Shown one piece after another: positions 1-28,094 of a stretch of DNA of 52,533 bases (the stretch's first letter is position 1; every line of letters starts with the position of its first letter). The DNA comes from a virus (lineage: Duplodnaviria; Caudoviricetes). The stretch covers positions 1-52,533 of the IMG/VR virus record IMGVR_UViG_3300014932_000216. One strand, 5' to 3'. The notes below the pieces were generated by a model that worked only from the letters and a program-made list of their open reading frames with translations, had not been told where the DNA came from and made no database searches. Both the position numbers and the translations under genes were made by a program.

Positions 1-643
1 CCTGTAGTTTTACCCCCGCCGCCGCCACTAACGGGGCATTTTCTCCGAAGGATGCGTTAAGTCCCTCCATTTTAGTTTTACCCTCCTTTACGGTGAGGAA
101 AAATGAATTGGCAATTTGATCGGCCGTCATTCCTTGGCTTTTGAATGACACCATTGCCGATGTTACAGCCTTAGTTGCGTCGGTAGCAGATGACAACCCT
201 GCAACGCTCAATTTTGCAGATGTTTCCAATACGCCCATTGCGTCCGCTGCGCTTACGCCGGAACTCCTGATTTGATAAAGCGACTCGGTTAGGTCGGATA
301 TTTTAACCGGCACCTTGGCGGCAACTTTCAAAACAGCATCGCCCATATCAGACATGCTTTCCTTTGTAGTATCTACCAGAGTTGCGACATTACCCATCTG
401 CTTTTCAAAGTCAATGGCCGCTTTCGTTGCTAACCCAAGTGGAATCAATAAAGCTGCTGCCATTAATGCAGAGTTCCCCGCAACGCTCATAGCCTCTGCG
501 GATGTTGCTTGGTACGATTGCCTTAGTTTGGCATTCGTCGCCATTGCTGCGGTGCCAAAACGAGTAGTGTCGCCGGTCATTTTATTGACCGGGCGGCTGT
601 ACTGATTTACGGCTGTGAATATGGTTGGAACAATAAACTGCAT
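1..643 (-). CDS. Tail tape measure protein, 5' part (continues at 52533)
   Basis: ATG at 643 overlaps the upstream TAA (TAATG). The frame is open to the window edge and reads ...FFLTVKEGKTKMEGLNASFGENAPLVAAAGVKLQ, a TP901-like core. It follows sheath, tube and chaperone. Confidence 0.85.
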   Translation of the reverse strand, partial: MQFIVPTIFTAVNQYSRPVNKMTGDTTRFGTAAMATNAKLRQSYQATSAEAMSVAGNSALMAAALLIPLGLATKAAIDFEKQMGNVATLVDTTKESMSDMGDAVLKVAAKVPVKISDLTESLYQIRSSGVSAADAMGVLETSAKLSVAGLSSATDATKAVTSAMVSFKSQGMTADQIANSFFLTVKEGKTKMEGLNASFGENAPLVAAAGVKLQ

Positions 644-849
644 TACTTTTTCCTTGTCAACTCCTTTACTAAGTCATACCAATAAAACAAACCTTTATAA
701 TCCTCCCTATCACAATAAAACCCGTCAATAACAGACGGGTTCCATTTAAAATAACATATCACAATCTTTATCGCGCCATCAATGTCAATTTCAATGTCAC
801 CCTCATCAACCAAGTTTGTTAGATAAAAAAAAGGCTGATACAGTCGCAA
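643..849 (-). CDS. Tail assembly chaperone C-terminal extension (gpT-like), probably reached by -1 frameshift
   Basis: Overlaps the end of 819..1238 in the -1 frame at a T8 run (825-832) and lies directly before the tape measure. Confidence 0.65.
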   Translation of the reverse strand: MRLYQPFFYLTNLVDEGDIEIDIDGAIKIVICYFKWNPSVIDGFYCDREDYKGLFYWYDLVKELTRKK

Positions 850-7595: not shown

Positions 7596-8138
7596 TTAAG
7601 CCGCTATGGGATTCCTTTGCACTTTGCGCTTATTGTTCTGCTGCTCCTTCATTGTAGCCCATCGACAATTGAACGGCTCGTATATGCCGTCATTATTGCG
7701 TCTATCGAGGCTATGTAACTTTGTTGGTTTAACTCCCATATCCTTCACAAACATATCAAATGACCTCAGCCATCTATCGCATACTGTTATCCCTCTGCGC
7801 CCGTAATCATTATATTTTGGGTGTGATGGCTTCGTACACCTATATATCATGTTCTTCCATGTCCAGTAGAGAGGGTGTTTATATTTCGCATTTGGATTCC
7901 GAATATGAATTACATGAGCGCGACCCTTTTTTACGTACGGCCCTTTCTTAGGTAGATTAATGCACCCGCAGTGTTTTGCAGATTTACCGCGACTCGCATT
8001 AGATACATTCACTATGAAATTATTATGGCAATGCGGGCATTTTACGATTGCTGACCGCCTACCATGTATCATACCTAAGTCGGATATAACAATTAATGCC
8101 CCTAAAGTATCAGGTATTTTGTCTAATGTTTTTGGCAT
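7596..8138 (-). CDS. HNH-family endonuclease with N-terminal Cys motifs
   Basis: HPLYWTWKNMIYRC, YGRRGITVCDRW and SLDRRNNDGIYEPFNCRWAT motifs. Confidence 0.85.
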   Translation of the reverse strand: MPKTLDKIPDTLGALIVISDLGMIHGRRSAIVKCPHCHNNFIVNVSNASRGKSAKHCGCINLPKKGPYVKKGRAHVIHIRNPNAKYKHPLYWTWKNMIYRCTKPSHPKYNDYGRRGITVCDRWLRSFDMFVKDMGVKPTKLHSLDRRNNDGIYEPFNCRWATMKEQQNNKRKVQRNPIAA

Positions 8139-16542: not shown

Positions 16543-16959
16543 CTACCCGCAGTTTATTTCTATTTCCAGATCGTGCAATTCCTTTATTATACTCCAGCTA
16601 AATGAATTTTGGTGGTGGTACCCATCGCTGTCTTTTGTTTGGGACTCAACCGAAAAAGGATCGCAGGCAAAGAGACGGCAGTCGCCCATATTGTTCTTTA
16701 TTTTCAAAACCTTAGCGACATAATCTAGGTCCTTTATGTTATGCAAAAGTCCGTGACAATCTTCGCACACTGTTTTTAGCGCGCGGTTTGGAGCATCCCA
16801 TGGTTCGCCAGTGTATTTCTCATGGTGTACATGTAGCTGAGATTTATCATCCCCGCATAAGGTACATTTCCATTGATCTCTGTTGAGAATTTCTAATCTG
16901 CGCTTTTGCCAGCGCACGTCTTTGAGTTTGTCCGAATAGGACTGGTTTTGATTAAGCAT
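16543..16959 (-). CDS. HNH endonuclease
   Basis: WQKRRLEILNRDQWKCTLC, LHVHH and VCEDCH. Start revised to MLNQ at 16959. Confidence 0.85.
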   Translation of the reverse strand: MLNQNQSYSDKLKDVRWQKRRLEILNRDQWKCTLCGDDKSQLHVHHEKYTGEPWDAPNRALKTVCEDCHGLLHNIKDLDYVAKVLKIKNNMGDCRLFACDPFSVESQTKDSDGYHHQNSFSWSIIKELHDLEIEINCG

Positions 16960-17010
16960 ATTTCGCGGATTTTTGATTGTGAAAGAAAGGAAACTGAAAT
17001 GTATGGACAC

Positions 17011-17348: not shown

Positions 17349-18365
17349 TTATGCTTCTTTTAAAAGAAATTTATTGCTTATCACCTTAAAGGAAATATTC
17401 CGGTTGTGACTGCGAATTACAAGCCCTTCACGCTCCGTATTTTGATTTATAATACTCTTCCCTTCCGCAGATGCAATAAGTGTCTCTATTGTGTCGGGAA
17501 GCGAATAGGATTCAAAAAGGAATGGCACACTATCGAGGCAAAGTATATTTAACAGGGCGCGGAAGTTTTCATAATCCAGGTACTCTTGTTTATCTATGTT
17601 GTAGGCGTTGAAAAATCTAACGCTATGCCCCTTTATTTTATAAGGGTTGCCTTGTATTCCTTCGCCTATAAGCTCACCTTGCAGGGCGTAATTTCCTAGG
17701 CTAGAAAGTTTAGTTTCTAAATCTAGGTCCCGCGCCATCTTCCAAAAAGTATTATCAGGCGTTTCGATCAGGTCAATATTCCGGCTGCAAACTCCAAAAA
17801 AATTATTATTGTTGTAGAATGTCGCGCTGCTGCCGTCCAGCTTTTCAGTAACATAAAATGTATTGGTCTTAAAATTTTCATAAACTGGCGAAAGGTTTTG
17901 TATTCTCTCTTCGTCTGTTTTTGGTATAAATAAGGGGAATGAACTGCGCATAATTCCGGCAAGCTGCGCCGGTATAGGCATTTCATATTTCCACACCCCG
18001 AGCGTTTCGGTAATATCATCACCAACCTGCAAAGTGTTGTAAACGCCGTTATCTATCAAACCTTTCAGGTAAGACAATGGAAGTATCAACCCTTGTGACA
18101 CCTGCCCGCGCAATTTTATTGTTTTCAGTCGGAATCCTTCTTTGCCATTCATTTTCTTGAATGAGGATTTGCGGAGAAATTCAAATTCCTCGCGGACTGG
18201 TAAAAGGCTGTCTATTTCAAAATAAATAGCCTTGTCGCCTATTTTAAATTCACCTTTTTTGACTACCAATTTCCATGCGTTTATGGTAGCCACTTCGATA
18301 AGGTCTGCGCCCTCTATCGGTTGTAGGTCTGCAACGACCTGAATTGATGCTAATTTTCTTTCCAT
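17349..18365 (-). CDS. ATP-dependent RNA ligase, DRB0094-like (Rnl2-type fold)
   Basis: RKLASIQ..PIEGADLIE, LRGQVSQG, FIPKTDEERIQN, adenylation motif EKLDGSS, QGELIG, REGLV and SFKVIS. Confidence 0.9.
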   Translation of the reverse strand: MERKLASIQVVADLQPIEGADLIEVATINAWKLVVKKGEFKIGDKAIYFEIDSLLPVREEFEFLRKSSFKKMNGKEGFRLKTIKLRGQVSQGLILPLSYLKGLIDNGVYNTLQVGDDITETLGVWKYEMPIPAQLAGIMRSSFPLFIPKTDEERIQNLSPVYENFKTNTFYVTEKLDGSSATFYNNNNFFGVCSRNIDLIETPDNTFWKMARDLDLETKLSSLGNYALQGELIGEGIQGNPYKIKGHSVRFFNAYNIDKQEYLDYENFRALLNILCLDSVPFLFESYSLPDTIETLIASAEGKSIINQNTEREGLVIRSHNRNISFKVISNKFLLKEA

Positions 18366-24176: not shown

Positions 24177-24656
24177 TTATGCTGCTAAAAGTTTTTTCAA
24201 ATTCACATAAGAAAGTTTAAGGCCTTTCATTGCTTCGCGCTGCGATTTATAGATAATACCGTTGTGGGTTATGGCGATCCTATTGTTAGTTCTATGATCA
24301 CACAATCCACTTTCCCATGCGTGCGCTATATTTTCCTTAGCGGTGCACCACTCTAAATTTTCTATACTGTTATCTGTTTTTATTCCATTTATGTGGTTAA
24401 TAAATGGTTTGTTATTTTGGTTCGGCACAAAAGCTATAGCTATTAATCTGTGAACTTTTTTGTGCTTAGGGGTTCCATTTTTTGACAAGCAAACGTGCAA
24501 ATAGCCGCCTATTTCATACTGAGTTGTGGGCTGACCATTATAAAAACGCACCCTTCCGCTATTTCCCCGTAGTGTTCTATCCACACTTCTTACATTACCA
24601 AGATTGCTAACCTGATAAATACCCTCATATCCTTTTATGTCTTTCCAGATTTCCAT
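24177..24656 (-). CDS. NUMOD4-HNH homing endonuclease
   Basis: EIWKDIKGYEGIYQVSNLGNVRS, VHRLIA and INHINGIKTDNSIENLEW. Confidence 0.92.
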   Translation of the reverse strand: MEIWKDIKGYEGIYQVSNLGNVRSVDRTLRGNSGRVRFYNGQPTTQYEIGGYLHVCLSKNGTPKHKKVHRLIAIAFVPNQNNKPFINHINGIKTDNSIENLEWCTAKENIAHAWESGLCDHRTNNRIAITHNGIIYKSQREAMKGLKLSYVNLKKLLAA

Positions 24657-24944: not shown

Positions 24945-25355
24945 TTAAATCATTGCTGATGAAAAGGTGAAGAACTTTTTTGCGTAAGATTTCGTGCTTG
25001 TGTGCACCTTATCCCTTCTGATTCCCCCATAAAGCAACTCCATAGTAGCTTTTGACTTGTGAGATAAATTCTCCGATTTAGTACACCATTCCAGATTTTT
25101 AACTCTCGCATCTGTCTTGTCGAAATTTCTGTGGTTCACCTCTGGCTTGTTTTCTGGGTTCGGAATAAAGGCGATTGCCACACATCTATGCACCGACACA
25201 TTGGCAATCTTTCCAGACTTATCTGGCATCGAAACCATTGGATAACCCATGCACATAACAGATTTTCTAACCAGCGTAGACCCTATTAGCCGTATGTTCC
25301 CAAGCGTACTAACCTCATATCTCGGGCACCTTTTTATTTTCTTCCACTTCTCCAT
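24945..25355 (-). CDS. NUMOD4-HNH homing endonuclease
   Basis: EKWKKI..YEVSTLGNIR, VHRCVA and VNHRNFDKTDARVKNLEW. Confidence 0.88.
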   Translation of the reverse strand: MEKWKKIKRCPRYEVSTLGNIRLIGSTLVRKSVMCMGYPMVSMPDKSGKIANVSVHRCVAIAFIPNPENKPEVNHRNFDKTDARVKNLEWCTKSENLSHKSKATMELLYGGIRRDKVHTSTKSYAKKFFTFSSAMI

Positions 25356-26516: not shown

Positions 26517-27680
26517 ATGAAACTACCTACCGTAAAAAACGTGCTTCGTAAGAAATTCAAGGGGGACAAAGAGGGTTATCTTTTCCTTCGTGTTGGTATG
26601 CCTGGTAATAAGATTCCAAAATTCAGGTCGTACAACTACAAGATTCCGGCGGCGCAATGGGACGAAGTGAGCGAGGTTGTAAAAAAGCCTCATATTGATG
26701 CTGGCCAGATAAATGCGGAGATAAGTGCGGAGAAAGACCGCATAGCTGATTTACTTAAATCGGAAGCCCGTAAAGGAACGACAATAACCAGTGATTATAT
26801 AGATGCCGTTCTTAACCCATCGGCCTCGCACGGGTCGTTCCTGCGATTCTACGATAGCTTTATTGAATTGCAGCGCACGAGGCATAGTAAAGGATATGCC
26901 GACCATCTGCTTATTGAGTATAACGGTGTAAAGCGATTTGCCGGGAATAACTTGCAGTTTGAGGACATTACCAGCGATTTCCTAGAGCGGTACGAAATGA
27001 GCCTTGCAAGCGGCAAAAAAAAGATTGCAGGCACCACCTTACATATCAAGATGAAGCGATTAAAAGAAGTTATTGCAAAGGCTGTTGATCGCGGGCATAT
27101 CGAAAAGAAAAAAGTAGCCGGGTATAAATACCCACCATATCCTGAGCCGGAGACGTTTTATTTGACGCTGGAGCAAGCGGATAAGATTTTCAACAATCTA
27201 AAGTCGGGTATTTATGACTATGACAGCAATGTAAGGTCGGTTGTTGCTTTCTTTCTGGTGGAATGCTTCTCAGGGATCCGGTTTAGTGACTGGAAACGAT
27301 TTGAGATTGAAAAGCTACTGCATGATGACAATTTGAAGGTAAGGGCAAAAAAGAACGGGGAGCCTGTTTACTTACCGCTAAGGGTATTTAAAAGGCTTGG
27401 GGCTATCATTGACTATATATCGGCAAACAAGGTCGCGTTTGACCTAGAGGAACAAAGTACGAACAGGATATTAAAATCTATAGGGCATGATTTGAAATTA
27501 AAGTTCCCGCTAACAACCCATGTGGGCCGGAGAACATGCGGGACTATGCTTGGTGAGCTCGGCTACTCTACGAGGGCGATTGCCGAGGTGTTGGGCATTA
27601 CAGAAATGACGGCAAAAAGATACGTGAAGCAGACCCGCCAGTCGTTAAATAATGAGTTTGAAAAGTTCGGCGGTATATAG
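26517..27680 (+). CDS. int: Tyrosine integrase
   Basis: Arm-binding N-terminus, SAM-like core, GIRFSD, K, THVGRRT and C-terminal KRY. Confidence 0.93.
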   Translation: MKLPTVKNVLRKKFKGDKEGYLFLRVGMPGNKIPKFRSYNYKIPAAQWDEVSEVVKKPHIDAGQINAEISAEKDRIADLLKSEARKGTTITSDYIDAVLNPSASHGSFLRFYDSFIELQRTRHSKGYADHLLIEYNGVKRFAGNNLQFEDITSDFLERYEMSLASGKKKIAGTTLHIKMKRLKEVIAKAVDRGHIEKKKVAGYKYPPYPEPETFYLTLEQADKIFNNLKSGIYDYDSNVRSVVAFFLVECFSGIRFSDWKRFEIEKLLHDDNLKVRAKKNGEPVYLPLRVFKRLGAIIDYISANKVAFDLEEQSTNRILKSIGHDLKLKFPLTTHVGRRTCGTMLGELGYSTRAIAEVLGITEMTAKRYVKQTRQSLNNEFEKFGGI

Positions 27681-27716
27681 GCCGGCTCGATGCCGCTATG
27701 GCGTTGTGGGAGAAAT

Positions 27717-27743
27717 AAAAAAGCCCCCATTTACGAAGGGGGC
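27717..27743 (-). terminator. Intrinsic terminator of the tmRNA gene
   Basis: GCCCCC-TTCGTAAAT-GGGGGC followed by T6. Confidence 0.8.
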
Positions 27744-27962
27744 AAGTTTCGTTAGGCGGCGATACTCACAGAGTACCGAGGCGTAAAGGCAATAGTTCTG
27801 CCGTTTATTGTTACATCTCCTCTTCTTCCCATCCCTTGCTGTCAAAACCAGTCGGCCCCGGTAATTTATCTATAAGGCGATGTTCTTACTCATCGCTTTG
27901 TGGAGCCGGTGGGAGTCGAACCCACGTCCAAACAAGTTTTCAAAAAGCGTCAACGGTTATGC
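27717..27962 (-). ncRNA. ssrA: Circularly permuted (two-piece) tmRNA gene
   Basis: The acceptor piece ...GGACGTGGGTTCGACTCCCACCGGCTCCA ends at 27901 and precedes a 41-nt spacer. The coding piece GGGGCCGACTGGTTTTGACAG starts at 27859. The acceptor stem has G3:U70, and the tag ORF at 27802..27752 encodes GRTIAFTPRYSVSIAA*. Confidence 0.88.
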
Positions 27963-27966
27963 TTTG

Positions 27967-27974
27967 TAAAGATA
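27967..27974 (-). promoter_or_regulatory. Putative -7 element (TATCTTTA) for the tmRNA gene
   Basis: One mismatch from TAnnTTTG, just upstream of the acceptor piece. Confidence 0.55.
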
Positions 27975-28094
27975 GTGGTTTTATAGATTTACCATTTCAA
28001 TTTAATTCGTTAGTTGTTTGCCGATTCATTTAAAATACCATTGATGCGCCGAAGCTGATCGAGGCCTTATTTCCGTCCTTTACCTGTTCTGTGT

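Follow-up and report, generated by a model that had tools for sequence, protein, structure and literature searches.

A circularly permuted tmRNA gene on a viral record

Transfer-messenger RNA (tmRNA) frees ribosomes that have stalled, and its two-piece form is the classic example of a permuted RNA gene. The subject of this analysis is a gene of this kind on IMG/VR virus record IMGVR_UViG_3300014932_000216, a stretch of 52,533 nucleotides (52.5 kb) that is the whole of that record and is referred to here as the window. We confirmed that positions 27717-27974 on the minus strand hold a genuine circularly permuted (two-piece) tmRNA gene, as an earlier sequence-only reading of this DNA had proposed, and all of the elements listed in that reading were found in their places on this strand. 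ARAGORN calls a permuted tmRNA at 27661-27990 (minus strand) with the tag GRTIAFTPRYSVSIAA as the sole RNA gene of the window, and the Rfam family RF04321 (tmRNA_permuted) matches 27752-27960 on the same strand over its full model (1-213) with 56.1 bits and an E-value of 2.6e-8, the gathering cut-off being 47 bits. This is the only Rfam family at gathering level across the window: the standard tmRNA model detects the T-arm piece alone, with 30.7 bits and under its cut-off, and the permuted families RF01849, RF01850 and RF01851 fall below gathering score in the same scan.

Read in the direction of transcription, the locus opens with the promoter-like box TATCTTTA (27974-27967), which deviates at one base from TAnnTTTG, the -7 promoter consensus of Bacteroidota. 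The box sits 52 nt upstream of the T-arm, as do the exact TAnnTTTG boxes of two relatives described below (L223 and L206), and a promoter scan found no sigma-70-type promoter for the gene. Another reading of the box is that its AUCUUU could pair with GGAGAU of the leader. The acceptor piece extends from 27966 to 27901, with an uncertain 5' limit, and was delimited by sequence reading, ARAGORN and Rfam. It contains one strand of helix 2b (CTTTTT, 27947-27942) and one strand of helix 2a (CTTGTT, 27936-27931) followed by T and GGAC, then a T-arm with a TPsiC-type loop (GTGGG-TTCGACT-CCCAC, 27925-27909), the 3' acceptor strand CGGCTCC (27908-27902) and the discriminator A at 27901. CCA is unencoded, the bases after the discriminator being CAA. 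A 41-nt intervening sequence (IVS; 27900-27860), whose removal is expected in maturation, holds the hairpin GCGATG/CATCGC (27896-27877).

The coding piece (27859-27717), which was recognized by the same three means and by cofolding, has the 5' end GGGGCCGACTGGTTTTGAC. Its 5' acceptor strand GGGGCCG (27859-27853) precedes a D-loop analogue that runs through GAC to 27841, the second strands of helix 2a (AGCAAG, 27840-27835) and helix 2b (AAGAAG, 27827-27822), and a purine-rich to A-rich leader that ends in AACAATAAAC, with AATAAAC in front of the resume codon. The tag frame of 16 codons, GRTIAFTPRYSVSIAA, occupies 27802-27752 from the resume codon GGC (27802-27800) to the stop codon TAA (27754-27752), and its product ends hydrophobic-Ala-Ala (I-A-A). 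The post-tag element ACGAAACTT (27752-27744) is followed by a terminator hairpin GCCCCC...GGGGGC (27743-27723) and a T-run (27722-27717), and a terminator scan returned a single site at 27739-27724 (minus strand).

The two pieces form a seven-pair acceptor stem, GGGGCCG/CGGCTCC, which includes the alanine identity pair G3:U70, and the mature RNA would be about 210 nt long. Gene order, gathering score, acceptor stem with G3:U70, T-arm, helix 2 and tag frame are therefore all those of a permuted tmRNA. The 57 nt between G1 and the resume codon, a distance that agrees with the sequence-only reading, compare with 80-155 nt in 48 phage genes of the pseudoknot 1 (PK1) class and leave no room for PK1, which, judged by this length, appears to be absent.

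A compact class of phage tmRNA genes

The gene is not alone. Seven viral contigs have the exact 5' motif, namely two with compact one-piece tmRNAs (L047 and L049) and five with RF04321 matches, of which L050 and L045 score 73.3 and 64.3 bits and L046, L048 and L051 are partial at 46.5 bits. A BLAST search against GenBank phages placed the T-arm inside annotated tmRNA genes, near their 5' ends, in the crAss-like phages cr114_1, cr125_1, cr60_1 and cr10_1 and in Chryseobacterium phage MA9V-3, and ARAGORN reads all five as permuted. Their tags are GNFYVTDYTRIAA (identical in cr114_1 and cr125_1), GNTSYVMDYTRLAA (cr60_1), GNNFVTDYTQLAVA (cr10_1) and GNVIDINKYVAKLEVAA (MA9V-3), and their RF04321 scores range from 40.3 to 64.7 bits, with cr125_1 (46.3) and cr60_1 (40.3) under the 47-bit cut-off. 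Maribacter phage Panino (PP540027, 27557-27889) also has a permuted call by ARAGORN, a 16-residue tag (GKVMNVSFAPTVRQFA) and 62.2 bits on RF04321, and a metagenome scan gave one further locus, on contig L297, that is a compact member with the tag DNDYQMKAAA. On the lineage-specific models RF01849, RF01850 and RF01851 the relatives score 25.9-46.8 bits against cut-offs of 50-84, and on RF01850 alone 28-47 against 84.

Viral contigs were collected with a general pattern consisting of a T-loop, the 3' acceptor strand, 30-60 nt, and the 5' acceptor strand with the D-loop analogue, which matched 101 contigs, 80 of them fetched. The distance analysis took in 89 sequences, some of them identical; 88 were parsed and 66 had an ARAGORN tag. 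L045, with the T-arm GAGAG/CTCTC, could not be parsed and stands outside the distance, alignment, promoter and CCA counts, and L046, L048 and L051, with no ARAGORN call, are outside the distance analysis. The 66 phage permuted genes fall into two groups by the spacing between G1 and the resume codon, with 18 genes at 56-63 nt, 48 at 80-155 nt (the PK1 class) and none at 64-79 nt. One of the 18 short sequences, L242, was excluded for an apparently mis-called tag start, which leaves a compact class of 17 phage genes at 57-63 nt that includes the window gene (57 nt), the four crAss-like phages and MA9V-3; Panino and L297 bring it to at least 19. All of these share the compact anatomy, and the permutation is not an event of this phage.

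Tag frames are present in all 17 genes, in Panino and in L297. The relatives' tags have 10-23 residues, mostly start with G and end in AA or VA, and the class shares an N-terminal pattern of its own (e.g. GKQINV.., GKVMNV.., GNSIQF.., GRTIAF..). CCA is encoded in 1 of 17 compact genes vs 23 of 38 distinct PK1-class genes. Exact TAnnTTTG boxes, at 52-64 nt upstream of the T-arm, are present in 4 of the 17 vs 0 of the 38. The arrangement of ACGAAACTT plus hairpin after the tag is common to the window, L198, L050, L265 and L255. The window gene combines the compact 57-nt spacing, a leader end AACAATAAAC-GG in common with MA9V-3, an IVS hairpin (z -2.4) and an unencoded CCA.

The class appears to be restricted to phages in the searches made. 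A strict two-part DNA pattern gave no match in viral contigs, a narrower permuted pattern recovered only the contig of L045, and the integrase of the window, used as query for related viral loci, led to nine pattern matches of which none was confirmed. Among phage records, blastn with the gene of L223 found no match and the gene of L050 found actinophage T-arms only. Several candidates were set aside: L190 and L191, which fit the pattern GACAGCARG..AACAATAAACGG, are chance matches with no tmRNA by ARAGORN or Rfam; the genes of Cellulophaga phages Calle and phi40:1 are one-piece; and L032 is of the betaproteobacterial type (RF01850, 84.2 bits) with an encoded CCA. This last gene, at 534-840 (plus strand) of a 59-kb viral contig, is a permuted tmRNA with 97.7 bits on RF04321, the tag ADSFELPVAA and an IVS of 6 nt including the encoded CCA, and its T-arm and 3' acceptor strand are identical to those of the window gene.

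Some observations on individual members may be recorded here. In cr114_1 (NC_055897; L052 653-725) a tRNA-His gene lies inside the 159-nt IVS, so that one precursor could yield three RNAs. RAGATH-9 motifs (153.7 and 154.4 bits) or a RAGATH-20 motif (122.4 bits) occur upstream of the permuted gene in cr114_1, cr125_1 and cr60_1 (L052 129-296; L187 389-557; L188 232-333), ending inside the annotated tmRNA gene in cr125_1 and about 200-260 nt before the gene in cr114_1 and cr60_1. The short one-piece tmRNAs (~315-330 nt) of viral contigs L047 (303-619, minus strand) and L049 (289-619, minus strand) have the 19-nt 5' end of the window gene and long G-start tags (GKQIDANMAKVRSLITSEEVLMAA and GKNVQIASAKVIALGGIGVSTNVRTLMAA); the compact permuted class may have in them its unpermuted cousins, or its ancestors. 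In the Panino record (L296) the hypothetical protein PANI_CDS0067 is annotated on the opposite strand (470-619, minus) inside the tmRNA gene (358-690, plus), and the annotated limits of the latter overlap the flanking tRNA-Asp and tRNA-Thr; the protein is probably spurious and the tmRNA limits probably too wide.

Covariation and folding

The phage homologues that the sequence-only reading had called for were aligned (17 compact genes) and carry a clear signal of covariation. Invariant positions include GGAC, the T-loop, CTCCA, GGGG and the TT-GAC of the D-loop analogue, as well as two A's of the motif before the resume codon and the first base of that codon. The structure evaluated consists of the T-arm, the acceptor stem and helix 2a, the register of 2a being set by the invariant GGAC and GAC. 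Pairing holds in 89.5% of 306 cells vs 76.4 +/- 1.5% after shuffling, both sides have changed in 39 cells vs 12.0 +/- 2.8, and the covariation score is 0.351 vs 0.121 +/- 0.022, with 0 of 500 shuffles reaching the observed value in each case. Shuffling does not preserve relatedness, and so the safer control is one in which partners were slid by 1-3 columns; this gave scores of 0.07-0.18 and is clearly exceeded too. Changes on both sides affect three of seven acceptor-stem pairs, two of five T-stem pairs and five of six pairs of helix 2a; T-stem cells are paired in 98.8%, and G3:U70 is kept (as U:G in the alignment) in 17 of 17 genes. Contig L297 adds compensatory changes in helix 2b (CUAUU/AAUAG) and in the T-stem (ATGGG/CCCAT).

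Single-sequence cofolds of L198, L213, L186, L236, L187, L223 and L235 yield nested helices 2b and 2c, in which the leader pairs with the 5' tail of the acceptor piece and which end 7-13 nt short of the resume codon. For tail-leader duplexes the mean energy is -18.2 kcal/mol in cognate and -13.9 kcal/mol in non-cognate combinations, and in 7 of 17 genes the cognate duplex is better than each of the 16 non-cognate ones. For the window transcript, taken from the base after TATCTTTA, the family architecture has -63.8 kcal/mol vs an unconstrained minimum of -64.1, a difference of 0.3. It comprises the acceptor stem, the T-arm, helix 2a, a 6-bp helix 2b (CUUUUU/AAGAAG) and a 4-bp helix 2c with two G-U pairs, together with a hairpin over the end of the tag and the terminator hairpin. 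The IVSs of the 17 genes (41-166 nt) are all predicted to form a hairpin that ends 1-17 nt before G1. By mononucleotide shuffles the mean z-score of these hairpins is -2.3, and 12 of 17 fall below -1.5; the IVS of the window folds with -8.0 kcal/mol (z -2.4), and none of the others leaves as long a gap to G1 as its 17 nt.

Comparison with the tmRNA of Bacteroidota hosts

The exact 19-nt 5' end of the window gene was found at more than 120 loci, a lower bound, of species-representative genomes. Among the 80 loci listed and fetched, nearly all belong to Flavobacteriaceae, Cryomorphaceae, Chitinophagaceae and other Bacteroidota, and two are titled Phycisphaera or Phycisphaerales. ARAGORN finds a standard one-piece tmRNA in 71 of them and a permuted one in none. 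The nine loci with no call include eight that match RF00023, whole or cut by a contig end, and one that holds 19 nt of the gene only. The host genes are 345-401 nt long (median 396), and 69 of the 71 calls have GENNYALAA-type tags, the exceptions being ANSQYSLAA in the Phycisphaera-titled L075 and EASNFNAG in L059, which is read from an atypical position. Tags begin at gene position 92-100 in 70 of 71 genes (L059, at position 221, is the exception), that is, after about 91-99 nt.

Above its cut-off, RF04321 has no match in 151 genomes sampled from the phylum of Maribacter flavus. There were 21 sub-threshold matches; 12 of these loci were examined and rejected as permuted genes, being 11 one-piece genes and one tRNA pair. 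With none among the 80 Bacteroidota-type loci and the 151 Bacteroidota genomes, the host phylum, as far as sampled, is without the permuted form. The one-piece organization and Gly-starting tags that the sequence-only reading had ascribed to Bacteroidota are borne out by these genomes, and the finding that it had named as removing the novelty, the same permuted gene in the host lineage, was not made in this sample. Two of the host contigs, from Arenibacter metagenome-assembled genomes, also show Flavo-1 RNA motifs, which are separated from the tmRNA gene's 5' end by about 230 nt (L076 251-350, minus strand, 42.9 bits; L132 274-375, minus strand, 45.1 bits).

The window's acceptor piece is identical to a Flavobacteriaceae 3' end (L116) at 35 of 37 positions, the two mismatches being the two sides of a single T-stem pair. 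The coding piece resembles host genes over about 38 nt only, the first 19 of which are identical; beyond this the leader, tag and post-tag element are non-host-like, yet conserved in the phage family. Compared over 40 nt, the acceptor pieces of the compact class are nearer to Bacteroidota 3' ends than to the PK1 class in 16 of 17 genes by mean identity and in 15 of 17 by best match, and that of the window has an identity of 0.90 (best) and 0.83 (mean) to host genes vs 0.80 and 0.73 to the PK1 class. Given the shortness of the sequences and the selection of the host set by means of the window's own 5' motif, this likeness is supporting evidence and not proof of origin; it supports a tRNA-like domain of Bacteroidota type. 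The unencoded CCA, which the sequence-only reading had correctly observed and singled out, is ordinary in this setting, since of 54 one-piece genes from Bacteroidota only 1 encodes CCA. Besides this trait, the window gene has in common with the host genes the G3:U70 pair, a tag that starts with G and the first 19 nt; it differs from their 345-401-nt single piece, ~91-99-nt leader and GENNYALAA-type tag in being permuted, about 210 nt long and equipped with an unrelated 16-residue tag.

The carrying phage

The record is classed as linear, with a CheckV completeness of 89%. Its proteins match PHROG families for a contractile tail (sheath, tube, baseplate and tape measure proteins), for head and packaging (large terminase, portal, protease and major head protein), and for a DnaB-like helicase, a RecT-like protein, an RNA ligase, an endolysin, a repressor-like protein, and several HNH endonucleases and DNA methyltransferases. 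A tyrosine-type integrase gene (26517-27680, plus strand; phrog_1, E 4.1e-18) directly adjoins the tmRNA gene in convergent orientation. The nearest counterparts of the large terminase, with 35-37% identity across 94-95% of its length, come from Cellulophaga phage phiSM and its relatives and from phages of Flavobacterium columnare, FCL-2 among them. The best reading of these matches is a temperate phage with a contractile tail and a Bacteroidota host, and the terminase relatives, together with the cultured relatives of the tmRNA gene, bear out the host phylum suggested by the sequence-only reading.

Fragments of the tape measure gene at both ends of the contig (2-643 and 51428-52513, both minus strand) indicate that the linear record is a circularly permuted assembly cut inside this gene. 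Four HNH endonuclease-like genes lie at 24177-24656 and 24945-25355 (both minus strand), 7596-8138 and 16543-17010, and the first two are neighbouring paralogues that match the same families (phrog_59 and phrog_959). The RNA ligase gene (17349-18365, minus strand; phrog_968, E 1.3e-89) and the tmRNA gene might together reflect a response to host defences that cleave RNA.

Adjacency of an integrase is not a trait of the family. When the records of five relatives were searched with PF00589, one had an integrase (that of L223, about 8 kb from the tmRNA gene), and three, estimated as 100% complete and two of them with terminal repeats, have none. The gene is therefore kept by phages that do not integrate, and the class is present in the cultured phages MA9V-3 and Panino as well.

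Proposed function and alternative explanations

Taken together, these results make it probable that the locus is a functional two-piece tmRNA gene and that the compact phage-borne class to which it belongs derives from a Bacteroidota one-piece tmRNA. From the established biology of two-piece tmRNA (PMC3968760, PMC11915505) we infer how it would work. A precursor of about 250 nt would be transcribed from its own promoter and end at the intrinsic terminator. Host RNase P would cleave before G27859, host 3'-end enzymes would trim the acceptor piece to A27901, the host CCA-adding enzyme would add CCA as it must do for host tmRNA, and the 41-nt spacer would be discarded. The two resulting RNAs, of about 65 and 143 nt, would be held together by the 7-bp acceptor stem and helix 2a/2b. 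Charged by the host alanyl-tRNA synthetase through G3:U70, the RNA would be brought to stalled ribosomes by host SmpB and EF-Tu, where translation would resume at GGC and append (A)GRTIAFTPRYSVSIAA. A pseudoknot would be unneeded, as there is hardly anything between helix 2 and the A-rich leader. In E. coli tmRNA a hairpin can take the place of PK1, and two-piece tmRNAs work with fewer pseudoknots, according to PMC3968760, which also describes the binding of LAA by ClpX in E. coli; the I-A-A end of the tag resembles a degron of the ClpXP type.

Several points weigh against this interpretation. Wild-type E. coli tmRNA requires PK1 for tagging (accessible text of PMC3968760), and a pseudoknot-free tmRNA is therefore functionally unproven. 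RNAalifold recovers from the alignment only the T-arm and acceptor stem and not helix 2, and the tail-leader duplex of the window (-13.3 kcal/mol) is no better than its non-cognate mean (-14.0), 10 of 16 non-cognates being as good or better. Past 2a/2b, helix 2 of the window gene is therefore weak in its distal part, and the helix 2 proposed in the sequence-only reading (AGCAAG/CTTGTT) stands for 2a, with its covariation, and not for this distal part. A search with PF01668 found no SmpB in the phage record, in agreement with that reading, and so function depends on the acceptance of the phage RNA by host SmpB. The promoter box TATCTTTA departs from its consensus by one base.

The neighbouring integrase raises two further explanations. 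The locus could be a relic of integration, in which the acceptor piece is the phage attachment site (attP) copy of a host ssrA 3' end, the coding piece is a decaying captured fragment of an ssrA 5' end, and there is no working RNA. The convergent integrase and the 35/37 match to a Flavobacteriaceae 3' end fit such an origin, as integration at the 3' ends of tmRNA genes is common, this motif forms the end of many proviral contigs, and the available portion of the Panino paper raises the tmRNA as an attachment site. A bare attP fragment would not be followed by a complete coding piece with a tag, however, and no host among the 54 one-piece genes has an identical block, the GTGGG/CCCAC T-stem of the window occurring in none of the 54 host 3' ends. 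The same two-piece anatomy, covariation and intact tags moreover recur in at least 17 unrelated phage contigs, the three complete relatives without integrase keep the gene, and the leader, tag and post-tag element are non-host-like and conserved among phages, all of which makes a relic very improbable. A working two-piece tmRNA whose acceptor-piece 3' end doubles as the attP core for integration into host ssrA is another alternative. The pieces would come to lie at opposite prophage ends and both could still be made, because they are separate RNAs anyway, with the coding piece downstream of the restored host ssrA. Such a double role would follow logically from the order of the gene parts, and it is favoured by the neighbouring integrase and by the 37-nt 3' block near-identical to host genes; the missing identical block and T-stem in the hosts speak against it, as do the lack of an adjacent integrase in most relatives and the absence of an integrase homologue at E<=1e-20 from all of the 401 sampled Bacteroidota genomes, which left no integrated relative to inspect. 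We regard this double role as unlikely for the window.

A different alternative gives the RNA another purpose: it would enter the trans-translation pathway of the host but act mainly as a modulator that competes with or re-routes host tmRNA, perhaps by titrating SmpB or by attaching a tag of different fate, and the phage would benefit from altered proteolysis and not from rescue. The 16-residue tag is unrelated to the GENNYALAA-type tags of the hosts except for its first G and final AA, the class has its own N-terminal tag pattern, and the phage encodes no SmpB; in addition, host tmRNA is inhibited in E. coli by expression of a tmRNA-like RNA from a mycobacteriophage that has no tag frame (PMC11915505). 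The hydrophobic-Ala-Ala end of the degradation type is nevertheless kept, and the features of the sequence do not separate competition from plain rescue. We give this modulator little credence, and favour a functional rescue tmRNA of the compact class.

Relation to known two-piece tmRNAs

The nearest known genes are those of cr114_1 (NC_055897), cr125_1, cr60_1, cr10_1, MA9V-3 (PV245944) and Panino (PP540027). They have the same gene order with 59-62 nt from G1 to the resume codon, the same succession of GGAC, T-arm and acceptor strand and of TTYGAC and helix 2a, and the same G3:U70, IVS hairpin and A-rich motif before the resume codon; CCA is unencoded and the tags start with G and end in AA or VA, that of Panino also having 16 residues. 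The carriers are crAss-like phages or phages of 77-103 kb, whereas the window represents an apparently temperate, contractile-tailed phage of about 52 kb with a different tag sequence. Its IVS of 41 nt compares with 39-166 nt in these relatives, and it differs from them in the directly adjoining integrase and in a weaker distal helix 2.

Two-piece tmRNA has been credited to three bacterial lineages and to mitochondria (accessible text of PMC3968760 and PMC11915505). The corresponding families RF01849 (Alphaproteobacteria), RF01850 (betaproteobacterial) and RF01851 (cyanobacteria) resemble the window gene in permutation, in the joining of two RNAs by acceptor stem and helix 2, and in having fewer pseudoknots, as far as described in the available parts of the same two sources. 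These lineages are bacterial and chromosomal; the window class, in contrast, was met only on phages in our searches, has a tRNA-like domain that appears to be of Bacteroidota type and leaves no room for PK1. The two-piece tmRNAs of marine myophages (OM43 phage Melnitz, pelagimyophages and cyanophages; PMC9004378) are also phage-borne, permuted and detected by ARAGORN in its permuted mode. That paper gives 133 unique phage tmRNAs, 53 of which ARAGORN calls two-piece (50 of these from marine or aquatic phages), and its discussion covers alphaproteobacterial, cyanobacterial and beta- or gammaproteobacterial lineages; the marine myophage genes treated there are of alphaproteobacterial, cyanobacterial or betaproteobacterial lineage, unlike that of the window. 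Phage genes of the PK1 class differ further in their 80-155 nt before the resume codon, in tags that mostly start with A, and in the CCA encoded in 23 of 38. The one-piece genes of flavobacterial phages (Calle, phi38:1 and phi40:1 of Cellulophaga) and of viral contigs L047 and L049 are likewise phage-borne tmRNAs with a Bacteroidota-type tRNA-like domain and long non-host tags, but they are unpermuted, 315-360 nt long and have about 85-112 nt before the resume codon.

Phage records in RefSeq and GenBank already carry a tmRNA annotation for genes of the compact family, and Table S1 of PMC9004378, in the portion available, marks CrAssphage cr115_1, cr114_1, cr10_1, cr50_1 and cr273_1 and Cellulophaga phage phi4:1 as 'Permuted', so that permuted calls on Bacteroidota phages are in print. 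The novelty is accordingly less than the sequence-only reading had claimed. The available text of the Panino paper mentions a phage copy of tmRNA and does not contain the words 'permuted' or 'two-piece'; a paper on flavobacterial phages of the North Sea does no more than count one tmRNA for phage Calle, a gene which is one-piece in our analysis; and a report on crAss-like phages (PMC12291355) does not describe the gene form. RF04321 was built from alphaproteobacterial, betaproteobacterial and cyanobacterial sequences only, according to the accessible part of the 2025 tmRNA database paper (PMC11915505). We found no published analysis of a Bacteroidota-derived or pseudoknot-free phage tmRNA lineage, although the phylum-by-form Table S2 of PMC11915505 may already list such genes. 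As far as searched, the class is annotated and tabulated publicly and apparently unanalysed in print.

Significance for phage and tmRNA biology

We tentatively propose, as a possibility that falls somewhat short of even odds, that the compact class is a fourth independent permutation of tmRNA, which arose from a Bacteroidota one-piece gene, is confined to phages ranging from crAss-like podophages to temperate myophages, is free of pseudoknots and marks what stalled ribosomes produce with a tag of its own (here (A)GRTIAFTPRYSVSIAA); in the present phage, integration through the acceptor piece would split the gene without inactivating it. If this is true, the phage may do its own tagging when, for example, host defences that cleave RNA create non-stop messages, and this phage carries an RNA ligase as well. 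If a lineage confined to phages did descend from the one-piece genes of Bacteroidota, the known cases of permutation would gain an independent origin, and at about 210 nt the window class would be the smallest tag-encoding tmRNA architecture among those compared. For the window itself the gain is a correct annotation and the first temperate member with an adjoining integrase among those compared. The class offers a natural minimal system for determining what tmRNA really requires, and its cultured members, Panino on Maribacter and MA9V-3 on Chryseobacterium, make it testable. The class also suggests that, in a phylum prominent in gut and sea, phages routinely supply a ribosome-rescue RNA of their own that adds a private tag.

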